Source of the DNA: Candidatus Nomurabacteria bacterium RIFCSPLOWO2_01_FULL_41_18
GTDB taxonomy: Bacteria > Patescibacteriota > Minisyncoccia > Phycocordibacterales > UBA9973
NCBI GenBank assembly: GCA_001785865.1
Contig: MFUZ01000002.1
Span: forward strand, 22,128-86,127
Length of the DNA: 64,000 nt
Direction of reading: 5' to 3'
The notes below the pieces were generated by a model. It was not told where the DNA came from. It ran no database searches and saw only the letters and a program-made list of their open reading frames with translations. Made by a program: the position numbers and the translations under genes. Shown piece by piece: positions 1,318 through 17,712 of this stretch (within the stretch, counting starts at the first letter, position 1; each line of letters starts with the position of its first letter).

Positions 1318-1905
1318 ATGAAAAAACATCCAAAAGAAGAGGTTACATATGTCATGTTAAAGCCAGATGGAGTTCGCAAGGGACTCATCGGGGAAGTTAT
1401 AAAGCGTTTTGAACAGCGTGATTTGAAGATTGTGGCGCTTGAAATGTTTCAACCCGATTTTGACAAAGTGAATGATCATTATCCCAAAAATGAAGAGTGG
1501 ATAACTAGACTTGGTAACAAAACTCTCACCACTTATGAAAAATATGGCTATGATGCAATGAAAGATTTTGGAACTACTGATCCTGTCAAAATTGGTCCGA
1601 ATATACGCAAATGGCTTATAAATTACATGACGTCTGCGCCTCTCGTTAAGATGATAGTTAAAGGCGTGCACGCTGTAGATGTAGTTCGCAAAGTGGCGGG
1701 AGACACCATGCCCTATAAAGCTGATATGGGCACGATTCGTGGAGATTTCTCTATAGATAGCCCTGCGCTCGCTAATATGGAAAAAAGGGCTGTTATGAAT
1801 ATAGTTCACTGTTCTGAAACTCCAGAGGAAGCAGAACATGAGATAAAACACTGGTTTGGAAAAAGTAAAACTCATGACTATAAGAGGTTTGGAGTGGATG
1901 AATAA
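1318..1905 (+). CDS. ndk: nucleoside diphosphate kinase (long form with about 40-aa internal insertion)
   Basis: 'VMLKPDGVRKGLIGEVIKRFEQRDLKIVALEM' and the 'NIVHCSE' catalytic His block match Ndk. An extra segment lies between the HY and YM blocks. Confidence 0.8.
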   Translation: MKKHPKEEVTYVMLKPDGVRKGLIGEVIKRFEQRDLKIVALEMFQPDFDKVNDHYPKNEEWITRLGNKTLTTYEKYGYDAMKDFGTTDPVKIGPNIRKWLINYMTSAPLVKMIVKGVHAVDVVRKVAGDTMPYKADMGTIRGDFSIDSPALANMEKRAVMNIVHCSETPEEAEHEIKHWFGKSKTHDYKRFGVDE

Positions 1906-1908
1906 TCT

Positions 1909-2460
1909 ATGTATGAAGTTGAGGTAAAAGCACATCTCAAAGACAGGAAATCTGTTATAAAAAAACTAGAAAGTTTGGGTTGTAGATTCTCTAAAGAATT
2001 GCACCAAGTTGACCACATTTTTGCTCCCGAAGGAAATCCTTTTCCTTTACCATTTGAAATTCCAATCCTGCGAGTGCGTAAATCTAATAATAAATATTTC
2101 TTTACTTTAAAAATCTCTCAATCTAGTCGACAAGATTGTATTGAAAGAGAAATGGAAATTGTAGAAGGGGAGAAAATGATTGAAATATTGAAATTAATAA
2201 AATATAAAGAATTCGCTGTAGTGGATAAAAAAAGAATTAAAACCAATTTCAAGGATATGGAAATTGTCCTGGATGATGTGAAAGATTTGGGAGAGTTTAT
2301 AGAAGCTGAGAAAATTGTTACACATGAACATCATGAATATAGAAAAAAGATTCAAGAAGAACTGTTTGAGTTTCTTGAGACATTAGGTGTGACCAAAGAG
2401 AACAGAGTTATTGATGGCAAATACGACATTATGCTTTATAACAAACTAAATGAGAGATGA
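1909..2460 (+). CDS. CYTH-domain protein (second copy)
   Basis: N-terminal 'YEVEVKAHL' is the ExExK motif. Size and the LRVRK/FTLK/IEAE pattern are consistent with CYTH. Confidence 0.55.
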   Translation: MYEVEVKAHLKDRKSVIKKLESLGCRFSKELHQVDHIFAPEGNPFPLPFEIPILRVRKSNNKYFFTLKISQSSRQDCIEREMEIVEGEKMIEILKLIKYKEFAVVDKKRIKTNFKDMEIVLDDVKDLGEFIEAEKIVTHEHHEYRKKIQEELFEFLETLGVTKENRVIDGKYDIMLYNKLNER

Positions 2461-2463
2461 TTT

Positions 2464-3063
2464 ATGATAAAAGTTGTTATTTTTGATGCAGATGGAGTGT
2501 TGGTTCATGGTGAAAGAAGATTCAGTAAGACTCTTTCGGAAAAGCATGGAATTTCTTTAGAAACAACACTGCCATTCTTTACTGGACCTTTTCAAGAATG
2601 CTTGGTTGGAAATTTAGATTTAAAAAAAATTATTTTGCCATATTTAAATACTTGGGGTTGGGATAAAGGAGTAGATGTTCTTTTAGACTATTGGTTTTCA
2701 CTTGAAAGTAAAACGGATAAAGAGATAATTAAATATATTAAAGAATTAAGGCAAAAAGGAATAGTATGTTTGCTGGCTACCAATAATGAAAAATATCGTT
2801 TCCAGTATATGATGGATAAAATGGGATTGGTAAATGTATTTGATAAAACATATTCTTCAGCTCACTTGGGTCACAAAAAACCAGAGCAAGCTTTTTTCTT
2901 AAAAATATACAAAGAATTGAGTAATATAAAAAAAGAAGAAATACTTTTTGTTGATGATAGTGTAGAAAACATAGAAGGAGCCAAAAAATTTGGTATTAGG
3001 GTAGAACTTTTTGAATCTATAAAAGATTTAAAGAAAAAACTTTCATTTTTAAACAAAAAATAA
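2464..3063 (+). CDS. HAD-superfamily hydrolase (subfamily IA-like)
   Basis: DxDGV motif 'FDADGVL', a conserved Lys 'HKKPE', and 'VDDS' as motif IV. Confidence 0.75.
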   Translation: MIKVVIFDADGVLVHGERRFSKTLSEKHGISLETTLPFFTGPFQECLVGNLDLKKIILPYLNTWGWDKGVDVLLDYWFSLESKTDKEIIKYIKELRQKGIVCLLATNNEKYRFQYMMDKMGLVNVFDKTYSSAHLGHKKPEQAFFLKIYKELSNIKKEEILFVDDSVENIEGAKKFGIRVELFESIKDLKKKLSFLNKK

Positions 3064-3309
3064 TCAAACTTCATTCAGAAACAAAAAAAAGTGTCTGTCC
3101 AGATTGATTTCTCCAATGAAAAAGTATACAGTTTAAGTAGGGTTATTTCCGGTTATTACCTAGACAATAAATTATGGGAGAGTCGATTGTGTTTAGCCTT
3201 GGCTTCTCGCATCTCTCACCCACTTAGCTAAAAGCTATGGTAATATATCTGAAATAGTCCTAAGAAGTAACCCTCGTACGCGGGGTTTTTTCTTATCAAA
3301 AAGATAATT

Positions 3310-10167: not shown

Positions 10168-10564
10168 GGGGATGCAAGGCATAGACAGTAGGCCTTTTGT
10201 CATCGATGCATACCGAGAATGGACGTAACCTCGTAAAACTTCGTCCAATAGCTTAATTGCAAAATTAGCTTCCAAAGTGAAAGCAGCAGTCTCTCCATAC
10301 TTCGGTATGAATGACTTTGCTTTCGCTTCAGTTTCCGCTTCGGCGTAACTGATGTCTCTCTTATAGACTTCCGATATATAAGATGAGGCACAATATTATC
10401 GGGATAAGGAAATACCCGTTCGAGTATTTCACTAAAACCTAGAACTCGATTAAAAAATATTTGGCTCGTTTAAGAATTTTTTAATTTAAACAAAAAAGCG
10501 TGCTATGTATGTAGACTTCTTTACAAAAACCTTCTGCACTGGGATTCAATTTCCCACATCTCCA
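10168..10564 (+). ncRNA. ssrA: tmRNA (transfer-messenger RNA)
   Basis: The gene lies directly downstream of smpB. The 5' GGGGATG pairs with the 3' CATCTCC followed by A, giving a 7-bp acceptor with a G3:U70 wobble that marks Ala identity. The T-arm is TGGGA-TTCAATT-TCCCA. The internal GCATACCGAG...CCTCGTAAAA block resembles E. coli tmRNA. An Ala-rich tag reading frame ends ...NDFAFASVSASA at TAA 10346-10348. Confidence 0.7.
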
Positions 10565-10626
10565 CTCGACTTATTGTAATTTTTAAACTTGACTTAGAGT
10601 TTTAAGTAGACAATAATTAATACACT

Positions 10627-12927: not shown

Positions 12928-13410
12928 ATGCTGAATAAGTTTTGGAAATGGTACGAGAAAAATTACAGAGTCATTGCGTCTCTCACGGCCCTGCTTTTTC
13001 TCTTGCAGATAGTGCATTTATACTGGCTTTCGACAGACATTGTATTTTTTAAATTATTTAGGCATGCATTTTGGGATCCGGGTAATTTTTGGACTACTGT
13101 CATCGCACTTGTGGATTATACAGAGATACCGGCGATCATAACGAGCTCTATATTATATATTCACCAATATCGCACAAATAAAGAAAACCGCTTCCATAGT
13201 ATATTATTTCTATTGCTGATCAATTCGCAATGGCTTCACTTGTTTTGGATTACGGATGAAGTGGTGGTGGCGCAATTTACTGGCACAGCTCTGGTTGCTA
13301 TACCCATCTGGCTATCCTGGTGTGCTATTGTCATAGACTATCTTGAACTTCCAGTCATTTATGACACGATCAAAAAAGCTTTTTTGTCTTTAAAGAAAAA
13401 GGTAGTCTAA
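12928..13410 (+). CDS. hypothetical membrane protein
   Basis: A 160-aa polytopic hydrophobic ORF. Confidence 0.4.
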   Translation: MLNKFWKWYEKNYRVIASLTALLFLLQIVHLYWLSTDIVFFKLFRHAFWDPGNFWTTVIALVDYTEIPAIITSSILYIHQYRTNKENRFHSILFLLLINSQWLHLFWITDEVVVAQFTGTALVAIPIWLSWCAIVIDYLELPVIYDTIKKAFLSLKKKVV

Positions 13411-13466
13411 ACGAACTCTAAATTGCGTTTTAGCCTTATTTTGTTATAGTTATTAGGTTTACACAT

Positions 13467-13522
13467 CCGCGTGTAGCTCAGTTTCCGCCAGAGGCGGACC
13501 AGCCTTTGGCTGAGGCTAGTCC
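13467..13522 (+). other. truncated tRNA 5' fragment (GCGTGTAGCTCAGTT) fused to a 29-nt double-hairpin motif (TCCGCCAGAGGCGGA + CCAGCCTTTGGCTG)
   Basis: 15 nt are identical to the 5' acceptor/D-arm of the intact tRNA at 13768. The same double-hairpin motif (here called motif X) is repeated at 13851-13879. Confidence 0.6.
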
Positions 13523-13528
13523 AAATAA

Positions 13529-13777
13529 ATGTTTAGTATCTACATACTAAAAAGTTTAAAAAAAGGAAAAAGATATATTGGTTATACTGGCAAAACGGCT
13601 GAAAAAAGATTAATTGAACACAATTCCAATTCAAATGTTTTCACAAGACAAAATAAACCTTTTGTGTTAATCTATACCGAAGAATACCAGACCAAAGCTG
13701 AAGCAATCAAGAGAGAAAAATTTTTAAAGTCTGGGCAGGGAAGAAAGTTTTTAGATGGTAAAATATCGGGCGTGTAG
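13529..13777 (+). CDS. small stand-alone GIY-YIG nuclease domain protein
   Basis: 'FSIYILKSLKKGKRYIGYTGKTAEKRLIEHN' is a classic GIY-YIG motif. The stop codon TAG overlaps the 5' end of the downstream tRNA. Confidence 0.75.
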   Translation: MFSIYILKSLKKGKRYIGYTGKTAEKRLIEHNSNSNVFTRQNKPFVLIYTEEYQTKAEAIKREKFLKSGQGRKFLDGKISGV

Positions 13778-13840
13778 CTCAGTTGGTAGAGCGCTTAGCT
13801 TATACCTAAGTGGCCCTTGGTTCGAATCCAAGCACGCCCA
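13768..13840 (+). tRNA. tRNA, anticodon loop CTTATAC, predicted anticodon UAU (Ile, AUA-reading)
   Basis: Hand-folded cloverleaf: acceptor GGGCGTG/CACGCCC plus A; D-arm GCTC..GAGC; anticodon stem CTTAG/CTAAG; T-arm CTTGG-TTCGAAT-CCAAG. Confidence 0.7.
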
Positions 13841-13931
13841 CAGCTCAGTTTCCGCCAGAGGCGGACCAGCCTTTGGCTGGGGTTGAGAGCTTATACCTCT
13901 GGGGTCCTTGGTTTGAATCCAAGAGGACGGA
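13841..13931 (+). pseudogene. decayed tRNA copy (D-arm remnant + motif X + anticodon/T arms + 3' acceptor) lacking a matching 5' acceptor strand
   Basis: It aligns to the intact tRNA at 13768 with deletions. It has the same CTTATAC anticodon loop. Motif X is inserted at the same D-loop position as in the 13467 fragment. Confidence 0.5.
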
Positions 13932-13970
13932 CTACGTTGCAGAAAATATCTTTAATGGTATAATTAATTT

Positions 13971-14303
13971 ATGCAAAAAATAATATTCCTTTGCCTTGTC
14001 GTGGCTAAACTTATAAGGGAGCTTATTTATCTATTTATTGGTGTGGCTGTAGTGGTTTTTCTTCAAGGCTTCGGATTTGGCGATGGCATTGACTCGAGTG
14101 GAAAAATATCCTTTATCATTCTGATTGTTGTGTTGATTTTAATATCTTATGCCCTACCTTATCTTCTAAAAAATAAATGGCCAAGCGAGGTTGCTAAAGC
14201 TGAAGCGATTAATGATAAACCACGTAAAGTTTTTACATATTTAGGTGTAGCACTTATAATAATTGCAATTATTGCGTTCTTTATATTTATGCAATCGATA
14301 TAG
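13971..14303 (+). CDS. hypothetical membrane protein
   Basis: 110 aa with 3 hydrophobic helices. Confidence 0.4.
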   Translation: MQKIIFLCLVVAKLIRELIYLFIGVAVVVFLQGFGFGDGIDSSGKISFIILIVVLILISYALPYLLKNKWPSEVAKAEAINDKPRKVFTYLGVALIIIAIIAFFIFMQSI

Positions 14304-14306
14304 TTT

Positions 14307-16457
14307 TTACTCAAAATGAAATTCTCCAGCTTTACTTTTTACTTTAGCTTTCAGCAGGGGATACTTAATTAGTTCAGGATCTTCTTCGATTAGGCGAATG
14401 GCTTCGGTGCGGGCGGCTTCTACCATTTTTATATTTTTAATTGCTTCCATGCCAAGGTCGGTGATGCCCCATTGTTTGGTGCCTCCGAGTTCGCCGGCGC
14501 CACGAAGGGTGAGGTCTAGTTCTGCCAATTCAAAACCATTTTTTGCAGTTTTTAATGCTTTTAGTCTAGCTATTGTTTTTTCACTTTTGGCTTCGGCAAA
14601 GATGTAGCAATATGCTTGATGTGTACTACGAATCACACGTCCGCGGAGCTGGTGCAGTTGTGCCAAACCAAATCTCTCTGCGCCTTCTATGATTATTACA
14701 GTCGCATTTGGGACATTCACCCCGACTTCCACCACAGAAGTAGCGCAAAGTATGTGAATTTTTCCTTCAGTGAATTCTTGCATCACTTCTTCTTTTTTCT
14801 CCTTGCTCATTTTGCTGTGCAGGACTCCAATTTCGTATTCTCGAAATATTTCTTTTTTCAAACGTTTGGCTTCTTCGACTGCAGATTTTACGTTGAGCGC
14901 TAATTCTTTTTCTGGATCAGGTTCAAAAATTCTAGGGCAAATTACATAAAGCTGTCTGCCATTTTTTAATTCTTGTCTTATTTTTTCATAAGTTTCAAGT
15001 CGTTTGTTTGGGGTAATAATTTCTGTAATTATTTGTTTTCTCCCGGCTGGCATTTCATCAAGAAGCGACAAATCCAAGTCCCCATAGATAGTCAGCGCAA
15101 GTGTGCGGGGGATGGGGGTAGCCGTCATTGAGAGTAGGTGAGGAGCAACTCCATCCTTGCGAACAAGTTTTCTTCTCTGCGCTGTGCCAAATCTGTGCTG
15201 TTCATCTATCACCACTAATGCCAAATTTTTAAATTTAACAGTTTTTTGAATCAGGGCATGGGTGCCTATTAGAATTGGAATTTGGCCGTTCGCGACCCAT
15301 TTGAGCAGTTGTGCACGAGAAATTATGGTAGCTTCTTTCGGGTTTATTTTCGATGGGAATTTTTTACAGCCCGAACCTGTGATTAGGCCAATCTGAATTC
15401 CAGTGTGAGTAAAATATTGAATGAAGGAGTAAAAATGCTGATTGGCTAAAATCTCAGTCGGTGCCATATAGGCCGTTTGCAGATTATCCTTTAGTAGGAC
15501 GTACGAAGCTGTGGCAGCCACTGCAGTTTTACCGGAGCCGACATCTCCTTCGAGCAGTCGGGACATTGGGAAATTTTTCGTCATGTCAGCTAGTATTGTT
15601 TCAATCGATTTACTTTGAGAATTTGTTGGTTTAAATGGGAAGCGTTCTAAGAAATCCTGTACGTCTTTCTTTTCTGGTCTAATTTGGAAAGATTTATTTT
15701 TTCTATATTCAAATTTATCGTGTTGGCGTTCCAACTGGATGCAAAAGACCTCTTCAAAGGCGAATCTTTTGCGAGCTGACTCGGCATCATTTTTGTTTTT
15801 TGGTTTATGTATCCAAATCAGGGCCGTTTTTAAAGTTGGCAAGCTATATTTTTTTAAAATATCAGCTGGAATATAATCTTCTAAATTATCCAAACTTTTC
15901 TCTCTCAATATTTTTTCTATAGCGTGATAAAACCATTTGGAAGTGATTCCCCGAGTTTCGGCATAAATGGGGTAAGAGAGACCCTCCCCAAGCCCCTCCC
16001 TTAGCAAGGTGGGGTTTCTAAATAAAGTATCATGCGAATCTATGGGCATGTCCAGCATCTTTTCAAATTCTGGATTGGCTAGATAAATGCCGTTTTTGCC
16101 TTGAGTCACTTTGCCGGTTAATTTTACATTCTCGCCGTCATGAAGCATCTTTGCGAGATACGCCTGATTGAACCAAGTTATTTTTATTTTTCCAGACAAA
16201 TCTTCTATTTGGCCCTCGGCCATGGGAATCTTTGAACGAAAACCTTTTTTAGTTTTCAATTTTGATATTTTTCCATAAACTGTTGCCATATCTCCGGGAA
16301 TTAAATCCACAACTCTTTTTACCTCACTGATATCGCTATAGCGAATAGGGAAGTGAAACAGCAGGTCGGATACTGAAAAAAGCTTGAGTTTATTTAAAGC
16401 TCTTTTTTGGTTTACATCTAGGCGGAATTTTATTTCCAGCTTGTCGTGAAGTTCCAT
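14307..16457 (-). CDS. recG: ATP-dependent DNA helicase RecG
   Basis: A wedge/OB N-terminal region, Walker A 'GDVGSGKTAVAA', 'VVIDEQHRFG', and helicase C motifs, about 716 aa. Confidence 0.9.
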   Translation of the reverse strand: MELHDKLEIKFRLDVNQKRALNKLKLFSVSDLLFHFPIRYSDISEVKRVVDLIPGDMATVYGKISKLKTKKGFRSKIPMAEGQIEDLSGKIKITWFNQAYLAKMLHDGENVKLTGKVTQGKNGIYLANPEFEKMLDMPIDSHDTLFRNPTLLREGLGEGLSYPIYAETRGITSKWFYHAIEKILREKSLDNLEDYIPADILKKYSLPTLKTALIWIHKPKNKNDAESARKRFAFEEVFCIQLERQHDKFEYRKNKSFQIRPEKKDVQDFLERFPFKPTNSQSKSIETILADMTKNFPMSRLLEGDVGSGKTAVAATASYVLLKDNLQTAYMAPTEILANQHFYSFIQYFTHTGIQIGLITGSGCKKFPSKINPKEATIISRAQLLKWVANGQIPILIGTHALIQKTVKFKNLALVVIDEQHRFGTAQRRKLVRKDGVAPHLLSMTATPIPRTLALTIYGDLDLSLLDEMPAGRKQIITEIITPNKRLETYEKIRQELKNGRQLYVICPRIFEPDPEKELALNVKSAVEEAKRLKKEIFREYEIGVLHSKMSKEKKEEVMQEFTEGKIHILCATSVVEVGVNVPNATVIIIEGAERFGLAQLHQLRGRVIRSTHQAYCYIFAEAKSEKTIARLKALKTAKNGFELAELDLTLRGAGELGGTKQWGITDLGMEAIKNIKMVEAARTEAIRLIEEDPELIKYPLLKAKVKSKAGEFHFE
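15980..16008 (-). repeat. partial family-1 repeat embedded in-frame in recG
   Basis: The reverse complement 'CTTGCTAAGGGAGGGGCTTGGGGAGGGTC' matches the 3' half of the 6114 element (CTTGTTAAGGAGAGGGGTTGGGGAGAGGT). It encodes 'REGLGEGLS'. Confidence 0.5.
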
Positions 16458-17153: not shown

Positions 17154-17209
17154 CTAGCAAGCGAAGACTTAGCTAAACTCTATAATTTTCTTCGGATTTC
17201 GATTTGTTG

Positions 17210-17298
17210 CGGAGCCGGGCGGATTCGAACCGCCGAGGGGTTTTGAAGCCCCTGCCTCTTTAGCAAAGAGGTACGTTAGACCACTCTGACACGGCTCC
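17210..17298 (-). tRNA. tRNA-Ser (GCU)
   Basis: The reverse complement folds as a class II tRNA: acceptor GGAGCCG, anticodon arm CCTCT-TTGCTAA-AGAGG, a long variable arm, and T-arm GGCGG-TTCGAAT-CCGCC. Confidence 0.8.
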
Positions 17299-17390: not shown

Positions 17391-17477
17391 GGATGAGTGA
17401 CCGAGTGGCTTAAGGTAGCGGTTTACTAAACCGCCGTCCCCTTAAAAGGACCGTGAGTTCGAATCTCACCTCATCCG
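17391..17477 (+). tRNA. class II (long variable arm) tRNA with apparent anticodon ACU (Ser-like; needs software confirmation)
   Basis: Acceptor GGATGAG/CTCATCC plus G. The fold parallels tRNA-Ser. The anticodon arm is GCGGT-TTACTAA-ACCGC and the T-arm is GTGAG-TTCGAAT-CTCAC. Confidence 0.6.
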
Positions 17478-17712
17478 CTTCAAAAATATATCTCATATAT
17501 GGATTACCATATAACAACAGCACTTGAACATTAAACAAATAAATTTGCTTATGCTCCTCACTTGTTGTTATAATGTATTTAGTCGATTATTATTAAATTT
17601 TTAATCGAATTAAGTTTATGATCAAAGGAGAACACTAGAAGCAATTGGGAATGGTTGGTTTAATTTACTTATTTAAAAGAGGCGGCTTGTTTGCTGTCTC
17701 TTTTGTGTTATT

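Follow-up and report, generated by a model that had tools for sequence, protein, structure and literature searches.

A putative mobile GIY-YIG nuclease cassette in a tRNA-Ile gene of Candidatus Nomurabacteria, overlaid by a 30-nt double-hairpin element

The nuclease gene and its tRNA surroundings

We analysed a 64,000-nt stretch (hereafter the window) of the forward strand of contig MFUZ01000002.1 from Candidatus Nomurabacteria bacterium RIFCSPLOWO2_01_FULL_41_18, focusing on the locus at 13467-13931, where a small GIY-YIG nuclease gene lies among intact and broken tRNA-Ile sequences and two copies of a short double-hairpin motif (hereafter X). The locus was examined by direct reading (13000-14400), with ARAGORN, Rfam, a repeat finder and a pattern search, and against a list of open reading frames (ORFs). 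Its features are as follows (comparison loci from other genomes are labelled L with a number):

13423-13450 (+): candidate promoter of the original tRNA gene, TTGCGT-16 nt-TATAGT (direct reading)
13467-13483 (+): displaced 5' fragment CCGCGTGTAGCTCAGTT of a tRNA-Ile(UAU), positions 1-17, CCGCGTG allele (equals L011 tRNA 1-17)
13484-13513 (+): X copy 1, double hairpin TCCGCCagaGGCGGA + CCAGCCtttGGCTGA, between tRNA positions 17/18 (pattern search, repeats)
13514-13528 (+): decayed continuation of the tRNA 5' copy, GGCTAGTCC (compare G18-C25), and a short spacer to the ATG (direct reading)
13529-13777 (+): stand-alone 82-aa GIY-YIG ORF, whose stop TAG is tRNA U8-A9-G10 (Pfam, E 6.6e-15)
13768-13841 (+): intact tRNA-Ile(UAU), GGGCGTG/CACGCCC allele, functional copy (ARAGORN, TAT; Rfam tRNA, 75.9 bits)
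13842-13850 (+): AGCTCAGTT, positions 9-17 of the resident tRNA-Ile, now a pseudogene (41-nt repeat)
13851-13880 (+): X copy 2, between tRNA positions 17/18 (pattern search, repeats)
13881-13931 (+): 3' remainder of the resident tRNA-Ile, CCGTCCT/AGGACGG allele (1 nt from the L214/L216 tRNA)

An earlier note on this DNA had described an 82-aa GIY-YIG ORF with its TAG inside an intact tRNA, flanked by a tRNA 5' fragment and a decayed 3' copy that both carry X. Pfam and ARAGORN confirm the first point (tRNA-Ile(TAT) at 13768-13841, with the TAG at tRNA positions 8-10), and the repeat finder recovers both remnants. The 50-nt spacer given there between X and the ATG is in fact about 15 nt long (13514-13528), and its GGCTAGTCC stretch is homologous to GGTTAATTAA in L012 and to AGCTCAATCC in L001. 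The last 15 of the 17 nt of the 5' fragment match 13770-13784 of the intact tRNA exactly. In the downstream copy (13842-13931), a 36-nt segment that spans the anticodon loop to the T-arm is 86% identical to the intact tRNA; the copy lacks positions 1-8 as well as 5 nt of the D-stem/anticodon-stem region, a deletion that takes out the 3' strand of the D-stem. The acceptor and anticodon stems of the intact tRNA are unlike those of both flanking remnants.

A 41-nt direct repeat (AGCTCAGTT + X + GG; 1 mismatch) lies on both sides of the unit formed by the ORF and the tRNA, and the 326 nt between its copies (repeat period 367 nt) contain only this unit. Within the repeat, X is exact over 29 nt (13484-13512 and 13851-13879); the pattern search found no copy elsewhere in the window, and the chance expectation is 0 in 100 shuffles. 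The candidate promoter is conserved in L012 as TTGCAT-N16-TATAGT; we assign it only tentatively because a consensus promoter scan made no call at this block. Mechanical ORFs of 43-57 aa also run across the tRNA and X (13755-13886, 13810-13983 and 13817-13963, all +; e.g. ...AQFPPEADQPLAG...), and two database proteins (P0111 and P0100) have N- or C-terminal extensions that are translated X and tRNA fragments. These ORFs and extensions are likely gene-calling artefacts.

The 82-aa protein belongs to Pfam PF01541 (E 6.6e-15; 55.6 bits against a cut-off of 22.6). Across 20 diverse members, no variation occurs at residues Y5, Y16, G18, R27, H31, N32, E51 and E63, which correspond to the GIY, YIG, Arg, His-Asn and Glu of the motif and may be assigned catalytic roles by analogy. 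The AlphaFold2 model (pLDDT 92.1) has strands at residues 2-9, 15-20 and 45-53 and helices at 24-33, 37-42, 56-67 and 69-79, i.e. one complete GIY-YIG domain (beta-beta-alpha-alpha-beta-alpha) and nothing else. The nearest folds in the PDB are UPF0213, Slx1, the I-TevI catalytic domain and the UvrC N-terminal domain. By sequence, the nearest solved relatives are the UPF0213 proteins 1ywl (E 2.7e-8) and 1zg2 (E 8.8e-8); UPF0213/COG2827 is alike in its single-domain size and fold, but its identity to the present protein is only about 30%, and to our knowledge neither tRNA linkage nor mobility has been described for it. PADLOC gave no match among defence systems, and NCBIfam only a sub-threshold match to a group I intron endonuclease.

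Among the tRNA-Ile members of the family, dN/dS (the ratio of nonsynonymous to synonymous substitution rates) is 0.05-0.31 at near-saturated dS values of 0.6-1.8, and judged by these ratios the gene is under purifying selection. Given the invariant motif, the low dN/dS and the complete fold, the ORF encodes a nuclease that is maintained and probably active. Neither a profile search nor the AlphaFold2 model revealed in the protein a DNA-binding domain that would give a long recognition site. The lack of a module for reading long sequences argues against classical sequence-specific homing, and for structure recognition or another specificity factor. A homing endonuclease that reads the D-loop region, as proposed in the earlier note, is therefore unlikely as stated, while the selfish cassette at a tRNA gene, the other half of that proposal, fares better: the ORF and its adjoining tRNA behave as an inserted unit.

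Empty sites, allele mosaic and recurrence across Patescibacteria

An uninterrupted allele of the tRNA gene, which a comparison of synteny was expected to reveal, was found through homologs of the upstream membrane-protein gene (12928-13410). In L214 and L216 the same flanking genes are arranged in the order FtsH, membrane-protein gene and plain tRNA-Ile(UAU), with RecG beyond and with no ORF, X or tRNA fragment. In L215 a plain tRNA-Ile directly follows the membrane-protein gene, again with neither ORF nor X. With the window, L011 and L012 as occupied counterparts, this amounts to a presence/absence polymorphism at the same genomic site.

The 3' remnant in the window, from AGCTTATACC to GGACGGAC, is 1 nt apart from the uninterrupted tRNA-Ile of L214 and L216, and for this reason we regard it as the resident gene. 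By this alignment, the resident tRNA-Ile is a gene that has lost positions 1-8 and five further bases and gained X. The remnants do not derive from one broken tRNA gene, as had been supposed, but from two different tRNA-Ile alleles. The 5' fragment equals positions 1-17 of the intact tRNA in the closest relative (L011, 83% protein identity), while the 3' remnant is the L012/L214 allele, with a 3' end equal to that of the L012 tRNA. The functional tRNA belongs to a third allele, marked by its GGGCGTG/CACGCCC acceptor stem; in L011, it is the L001 allele that is found in the leader. This mosaic argues for repeated replacement with exchange between lineages rather than for duplication in place. 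Mosaic target sequence around the gene, a hallmark of homing genes, is thus found both in the window (three tRNA-Ile alleles) and in the L011 leader. The window likewise holds the three parts of the so-called mORFs of fungal mitochondria (see below), i.e. an ORF in a host gene, a replacement segment and the native part as a pseudogene.

We then compared the locus with its relatives. The ORF has 238 close homologs, nearly all from Patescibacteria (the Candidate Phyla Radiation, CPR), and an identical protein is encoded in a Candidatus Nomurabacteria genome. A scan of one genome per species gave 272 relatives, from which 80 loci were kept, and 90 loci were compared in total. About 59 of the 90 have a tRNA on the same strand whose start falls no more than 24 nt before or 80 nt after the end of the stop codon; the commonest arrangement is a 10-nt overlap in which the TAG stop is tRNA U8-A9-G10. 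These tRNAs are of 13 types (Ile, Asn, Ala, Val, Phe, Thr, Pro, Met, Lys, Arg, Gln, His and Ser). The leader upstream of the ORF starts with the exact first 8 nt of the adjacent tRNA in 41 of the 59 loci (chance about 0.002 per locus), and continues as a tRNA 5' part that is cleanly split by one to three double hairpins of 30 nt. The hairpins sit at tRNA positions 8/9, 13/14, 17/18 or 29/30, which does not agree with X as a tRNA-specific footprint at one fixed D-loop site. The form seen in the window (AGCTCAGTT, X, then GG) is common to Ile, Met, Ala, Phe, Pro, Asn, Thr and Val cassettes.

Variations of this layout follow one rule: the ORF lies within a group of same-isotype tRNA copies, one of which is intact while the rest carry X. 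Downstream 3' remnants with X occur in L006, L045, L049, L073 and others; tandem cassettes (L020, about 1200-1800, Val; L026, Asn) consist of a first ORF, a tRNA 5' copy with X, a second ORF and then the intact tRNA; and some loci have the reverse order, with the intact tRNA 5' and the X-interrupted copy 3' of the ORF. Beside the nuclease gene, X is present in practically all tRNA copies that are non-functional and in none that is functional. The cassette design is widespread and recurs at many tRNA genes, in hundreds of these ultra-small bacteria. Only the repetitive nature of the locus would suggest that tandem tRNA genes collapsed in the assembly or that short tRNA-like strings match by chance. 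Both possibilities are ruled out because the same architecture recurs at 13 amino-acid types and in dozens of independent assemblies from different projects, and because an exact 29-nt repeat is found where none is expected; we regard the probability of an artefact as practically negligible.

ORF-less versions also exist (L099, L117, L150 and L159). In L099 (X at 963-992), an intact tRNA-Ser(CGA) lies between a 5' fragment and a hairpin-riddled 3' remnant of a different tRNA-Ser allele, and solo remnants occur beside tRNA-Pro (L117), tRNA-Gln (L150) and tRNA-Met (L159).

The location of the stop codon within the tRNA makes a role at the RNA level attractive, since an RNase P cut would remove the stop at positions 8-10. 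By pairing with the 3' acceptor strand, the leader would then slow the folding of the tRNA and its cleavage by RNase P, and so gate translation of the nuclease. In a radical form of this idea, the leader would be a guide RNA to tRNA genes, which would account for near-identical proteins at many tRNA types. The widespread exact 8-nt identity between leader and tRNA, the stop inside the tRNA in most loci, and the fact that G-U pairing with the 3' strand survives two of the three single-base differences (L001 and L070) are all consistent with such a device. However, the acceptor copy in the leader mismatches the adjacent tRNA in both the window and L011, the 5' copy differs widely in its extent and X in its position, and the leaders match no Rfam family and have no structure besides the hairpins. 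A catalytic domain of 82 aa would also be very small for RNA-guided cleavage. We consider an RNA-level device of this kind very unlikely.

In a neighbour-joining tree of the proteins, which is weakly resolved because the protein is short, the Ile and Ala cassettes form clades, whereas the Asn cassettes are interleaved with those at Pro, Thr, Val, Lys, Met and Phe; the nearest protein neighbour is at another isotype 12 times out of 27. The tree and the empty sites bear on whether the protein is a host-retained factor (e.g. for repair or for RNA/DNA quality control) that is co-transcribed with the tRNA. Local tandem duplication and decay, followed by insertion of X into dead copies, would then explain the locus without any nuclease-driven mobility. 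The long stable synteny of FtsH, ORF, tRNA-Ile and RecG, the dN/dS of 0.05-0.31, tandem arrays that unequal crossing-over between the tRNA and its 5' copy could have produced, and closest solved relatives (UPF0213) that are not known as mobile would all suit a host gene. Empty sites in close relatives, 13 tRNA types with isotypes interleaved in the protein tree, and flanking remnants from alleles other than that of the functional tRNA do not, and simple in situ duplication fails on the last point. We therefore think a host-retained factor distinctly improbable. The same holds for duplication and repair at a tRNA hotspot, the alternative given in the earlier note: the stable synteny fits it, but the empty sites, isotype switches and allele mosaic do not.

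Many tRNA-Asn cassettes have a further peculiarity. At least 14 loci (e.g. L010, L038, L041, L043, L048, L055, L056, L065, L066 and L079) have a tRNA-Asn 3' of the ORF that runs past position 35 into intron-like sequence, which Rfam identifies as a group I intron in both loci tested (L010, 94.9 bits; L041, 83 bits). The leader copy in tRNA-Asn cassettes usually stops near position 35, and many loci without an ARAGORN tRNA show tRNA-Asn positions 1-35 followed by intron-like sequence. Group I introns inserted at 35/36 are known from tRNA-Asn genes of Patescibacteria, and their ORFs are of the HNH rather than the GIY-YIG type (PMC13011429). That study makes no mention of GIY-YIG/tRNA cassettes. 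The two systems are alike in phylum and target gene class, and the intron-like break in the tRNA-Asn cassettes fits the 35/36 site; they differ in that no ribozyme lies between the cassette leader and the ORF. GIY-YIG domain proteins have been listed among the genes that Patescibacteria exchange (PMC12455944). Carriage by phages was rejected, as viral contigs contain only two distant relatives of the protein and one copy of X.

Some individual loci of the family deviate in other ways. About 300 nt 3' of the tRNA-Asn, L085 has a second GIY-YIG-like frame of greater divergence, with the intact tRNA on one side and a 3' tRNA remnant on the other. In L002 a large serine recombinase (Resolvase/Recombinase/Zn_ribbon_recom; 1786-3246, minus strand) is found directly 3' of the tRNA-Ile, in the usual place of RecG. 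Leaders or remnants in L068 and L087 contain tRNA copies split by another hairpin insert with a longer stem-loop; this CCTGCCTGCCGGCAGGCAGG-like insert suggests that more than one family of hairpin elements exists.

The double-hairpin element X

X consists of two hairpins, as the earlier note had recognized, but the unit is 30 rather than 29 nt long, with two 6-bp stems and 3-nt loops; in copy 1, the outermost bases of hairpin 2 do not match. As RNA, copy 1 folds with -17.8 kcal/mol (z -4.5). Both stems are kept in the syntenic Ile loci by compensatory changes (TCCGCC/GGCGGA vs TCAGCC/GGCTGA; CCAGCC/GGCTGG vs TGAGCC/GGCTCA). A single 9-bp hairpin from complementary loops, which is the minimum-free-energy RNA fold, was rejected because the two loops show no covariation, and loops with full complementarity are rarer than expected (5 observed vs 12.8 expected). 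As judged by covariation, the double hairpin is the conserved form of X.

We also scanned metagenome contigs for one exact stem variant, which gave at least 118 stretches, and examined 86 copies among the matches listed. Of these, five belong to GIY-YIG leaders, about six are located within or next to tRNA remnants near an intact tRNA with no ORF nearby, and most others are in protein genes, with some in repeats or short unassigned stretches. X is thus not tied to tRNA genes as previously assumed, since most exact metagenome copies lie in frame within housekeeping protein genes. A stop-free frame of at least 150 nt extends to each side of 46 of the 86 copies, and 40 of these 46 are oriented with the coding strand; 37 of the 46 have one orientation and phase and read SAxGGPAxGW, usually after Phe. 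Host genes include those for DnaJ, PGK, TsaD, ArgRS, GluRS, MiaB, Ddl and UvrD (example loci within L091-L170 are L169, 482-511; L119, with three copies; L101; and L111). TsaD orthologs that are 85-90% identical differ in whether they contain the 10-aa insert, and three separate sites are involved. In the DNA, X is an exact 30-nt insertion without target duplication, with a preference for TTT before and (G/C/A)A after it. Dispersed structured copies, polymorphism between orthologs and in-frame residence are what characterizes mini palindromic insertion elements, and X shows all of them. By these comparisons, X is a presumably mobile mini-element whose insertion polymorphism is independent of tRNA genes.

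At the nuclease loci themselves (201 kb), strict double hairpins are about 200-fold enriched: 69 lie within 200 nt 5' of the ATG and 19 just downstream, as opposed to 3 in the other ~143 kb of flanks. These loci hold 91 X units with varied but paired stems, and the order of the stems is biased relative to the ORF, with the TCCGCC hairpin followed by the CCAGCC hairpin in 26 units and the reverse in 3. In the inspected leaders, X lies within tRNA-derived sequence and not in the A+T-rich spacer.

Several other identities of X were considered and rejected. The X copies of related loci contain CUGAUGA or CUGACGA, which recalls a hammerhead ribozyme; the window copy breaks this core, the differences are compensatory for the stems and no Rfam ribozyme is found. 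That X might be a common terminator unrelated to tRNAs had been named as a way to refute the tRNA footprint. No terminator-like site is present in 13300-14050, GG or GA follows X, and X is often inside reading frames, so that an intrinsic terminator does not apply, whereas the lack of tRNA specificity does hold. X is not a tRNA intron or the joint of split tRNA halves either: Rfam finds no intron or ribozyme at X, the pieces come from different alleles, and either remnant still lacks the acceptor 5' strand or the D-stem when X is removed. Two hairpins elsewhere in the window (31387 and 54318) are single and unrelated to X.

Why X marks the dead tRNA copies may be explained in three ways: (i) X could be mobilized by the neighbouring nuclease, by analogy with RAYT proteins, which we hold to be possible but on the doubtful side; (ii) X could be tolerated only in dead tRNA copies; or (iii) selection could favour X there since it breaks homology or the target of the nuclease. 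The first way can be widened into a partnership in which the GIY-YIG protein mobilizes X in trans, as RAYT proteins are thought to do with REP sequences, with the ORF-adjacent X as its master copy or the site that it recognizes. The solo copies of X, whether in protein genes or in tRNA pseudo-copies, would be non-autonomous progeny, and the tRNA context a harmless residence. Pointing to it are the ~200-fold enrichment and the biased stem order (26 vs 3), the position of the only two X copies of the window on either side of the nuclease/tRNA unit, the presence of Slx1, which acts on branched and stem-loop DNA, among the nearest folds, the exact duplication-free insertion, as in hairpin-dependent single-strand mechanisms, and the strong coding-strand orientation (40/46 in long frames). 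On the other hand, only 5 of the 86 exact metagenome copies among the matches listed lie beside a GIY-YIG gene, the enrichment could reflect tolerance of X only in dead tRNA copies, and we know of no GIY-YIG enzyme that transposes hairpins. Such a partnership, which would extend the cassette interpretation given below, strikes us as less likely than not. That X and the 82-aa protein form a previously unrecognized two-part mobile system of CPR bacteria, with the gene of a minimal structure-specific nuclease parked in tRNA genes, made harmless by a spare tRNA, and with X mobilized in trans genome-wide into tRNA copies and housekeeping protein genes, seems unlikely; a more radical variant would have the tRNA-derived leader guide the nuclease to its targets.

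How the cassette may spread, and its relation to known systems

On balance, we favour the interpretation that the locus is a tRNA-gene-resident mobile endonuclease cassette, overlaid by X as a second, much smaller mobile element, and we hold it with slightly better than even confidence. The cassette comprises the leader, the 82-aa ORF and an entire tRNA whose first bases lie within, or immediately behind, the last codons of the ORF. It sits inside the former resident tRNA-Ile(UAU) gene, probably transcribed from the promoter of that gene, whose two ends remain as pieces upstream (5') and downstream (3') of it. The essential tRNA function survives because the cassette brings its own working tRNA. 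This architecture, its recurrence, the empty sites, the allele mosaic, the insertion polymorphism of X and the purifying selection on the ORF are demonstrated by the comparisons above. A homing-type cycle would be a rather probable route of spread: the nuclease would nick or break a cassette-free tRNA allele, and recombinational repair from a cassette-bearing allele would copy in the ORF and the adjacent tRNA sequence. Repeated rounds and exchange between strains would then yield the mosaic of three tRNA-Ile alleles. We infer that the nuclease causes this spread, and that it may cut within the tRNA gene; its link to X is likewise conjectural. X is a separate, frame-neutral element that inserts exactly, without target duplication and preferentially after TT.

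Several observations weigh against this interpretation. The recognition of more than 10 different tRNA genes is hard to account for when the protein has no DNA-binding domain, and the functional cassette tRNA is itself an uninterrupted, potential target. Across Nomurabacteria, the cassette is a stable resident of the FtsH/RecG locus, where synonymous divergence is saturated and purifying selection is strong, and such stable inheritance fits a host-retained gene as well as an active parasite. The ORF-less loci imply that tRNA replacement and decoration with X are not strictly dependent on an ORF in cis. In principle, precise loss through recombination between the 5' copy and the tRNA could have produced the empty sites, which then need not be ancestral. 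Finally, no single-step event was found that yields the 41-nt repeat around the ORF and tRNA, whereas several multi-step paths fit.

Each component of the locus has an analogue elsewhere, i.e. mORFs, Seg endonucleases, Allomyces double hairpins, Rickettsia palindromic elements (RPEs) and the REP/RAYT system. The mORFs of fungal mitochondria supply a foreign version of the gene end that they displace, and the native end persists as a pseudogene, as in atp6 of Allomyces macrogynus and in atp6, atp9, cox2 and nad3 of Glomus (PMC3630166). Like the present cassette, they place an endonuclease ORF (LAGLIDADG, or GIY-YIG in atp9) in a host gene, an adjacent foreign copy restores that gene, the native part stays as a pseudogene of a different allele, and related genomes have empty sites. 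Unlike in mORFs, the host here is a bacterial tRNA gene, the 5' end or the whole gene rather than a C-terminus is duplicated, the nuclease is a catalytic domain alone (82 aa), and the remnants are systematically split by a second element. SegB of phage T4, a GIY-YIG endonuclease in a tRNA gene cluster, drives the inheritance of the tRNA region (PMC2330249). It shares with the cassette a GIY-YIG gene among tRNA genes and a spread by break repair with co-conversion of flanking tRNA sequence. Seg proteins differ in their size (>200 aa), their DNA-binding domains, and their location between genes without target duplication; they are also phage-encoded, whereas the present family is essentially absent from viral contigs. 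An integrase-mediated island does not provide a model, as no integrase gene lies between the repeats and the duplication is on the 5' side of the tRNA.

For X, the closest likenesses are short G+C-rich elements with two stem-loops in A+T-rich genomes, i.e. the Allomyces double hairpins and the GC clusters of yeast mitochondria. These also show compensatory stem changes and co-exist with mobile endonuclease ORFs; they differ from X, which is bacterial, fixed at 30 nt, frame-neutral and found mostly in protein genes and tRNA pseudo-copies. Paquin, Laforest and Lang reportedly took, in 2000, the presence or absence of double-hairpin elements in mitochondrial DNA from Allomyces relatives as a sign of mobility. 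These elements are cited in PMC4478555 and PMC7218506. Palindromic sequence and in-frame residence in housekeeping genes are common to X and RPEs; X differs in its length of 30 nt and its tight linkage to a GIY-YIG gene. RPEs are about 100-150 bp long. Ogata et al. are said to have described them in 2000 as lying in frame within housekeeping protein genes of a reduced genome and being translated as an extra peptide, and we know of no nuclease gene that goes with them. RPEs are mentioned in PMC1779305. REP/REPIN palindromes and their RAYT transposases (PMC2817692, PMC3116915) resemble the present case in that dispersed small GC-rich palindromes flank a presumed mobilizing gene. RAYT, however, is an HUH tyrosine transposase and REPs are extragenic, while here the palindrome-flanked gene is of the GIY-YIG and not the HUH (Y1) type and the element is largely intragenic.

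In the open-access full-text literature, we found no account of GIY-YIG/tRNA cassettes or of the 30-nt element in CPR bacteria. If our interpretation is true, a selfish nuclease gene lives in essential tRNA genes by replacing its target instead of splicing out, a strategy so far documented mainly for protein genes of fungal mitochondria. This would account for the turnover of tRNA alleles and for tRNA pseudo-fragments in streamlined CPR genomes, and would link two questions, i.e. how selfish nucleases persist in essential genes and how mini-palindromes move. The tight association of X with the nuclease offers a testable hypothesis for the latter, a question shared with RPEs and mitochondrial GC clusters. 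If the two-part system were true, X would belong to the smallest known autonomous/non-autonomous pair and would be a generator of 10-residue protein insertions. The bare 82-aa nuclease is possibly of interest as a minimal structure-specific enzyme. In annotation, the cassettes and X are a hazard: ORFs are spuriously extended, tRNA pseudogenes are missed and conserved proteins show inserts of 10 residues.

Other RNA genes in the window include a tmRNA at 10168-10567 (+), which is recognized by Rfam (113.6 bits) and not called by ARAGORN. Two divergent tRNA-Ser genes are also present: one at 17209-17298 (-), with anticodon GCT and a score under the Rfam gathering threshold, and one at 17391-17478 (+; 52.7 bits), for which ARAGORN gives the unusual anticodon ACT (A34).

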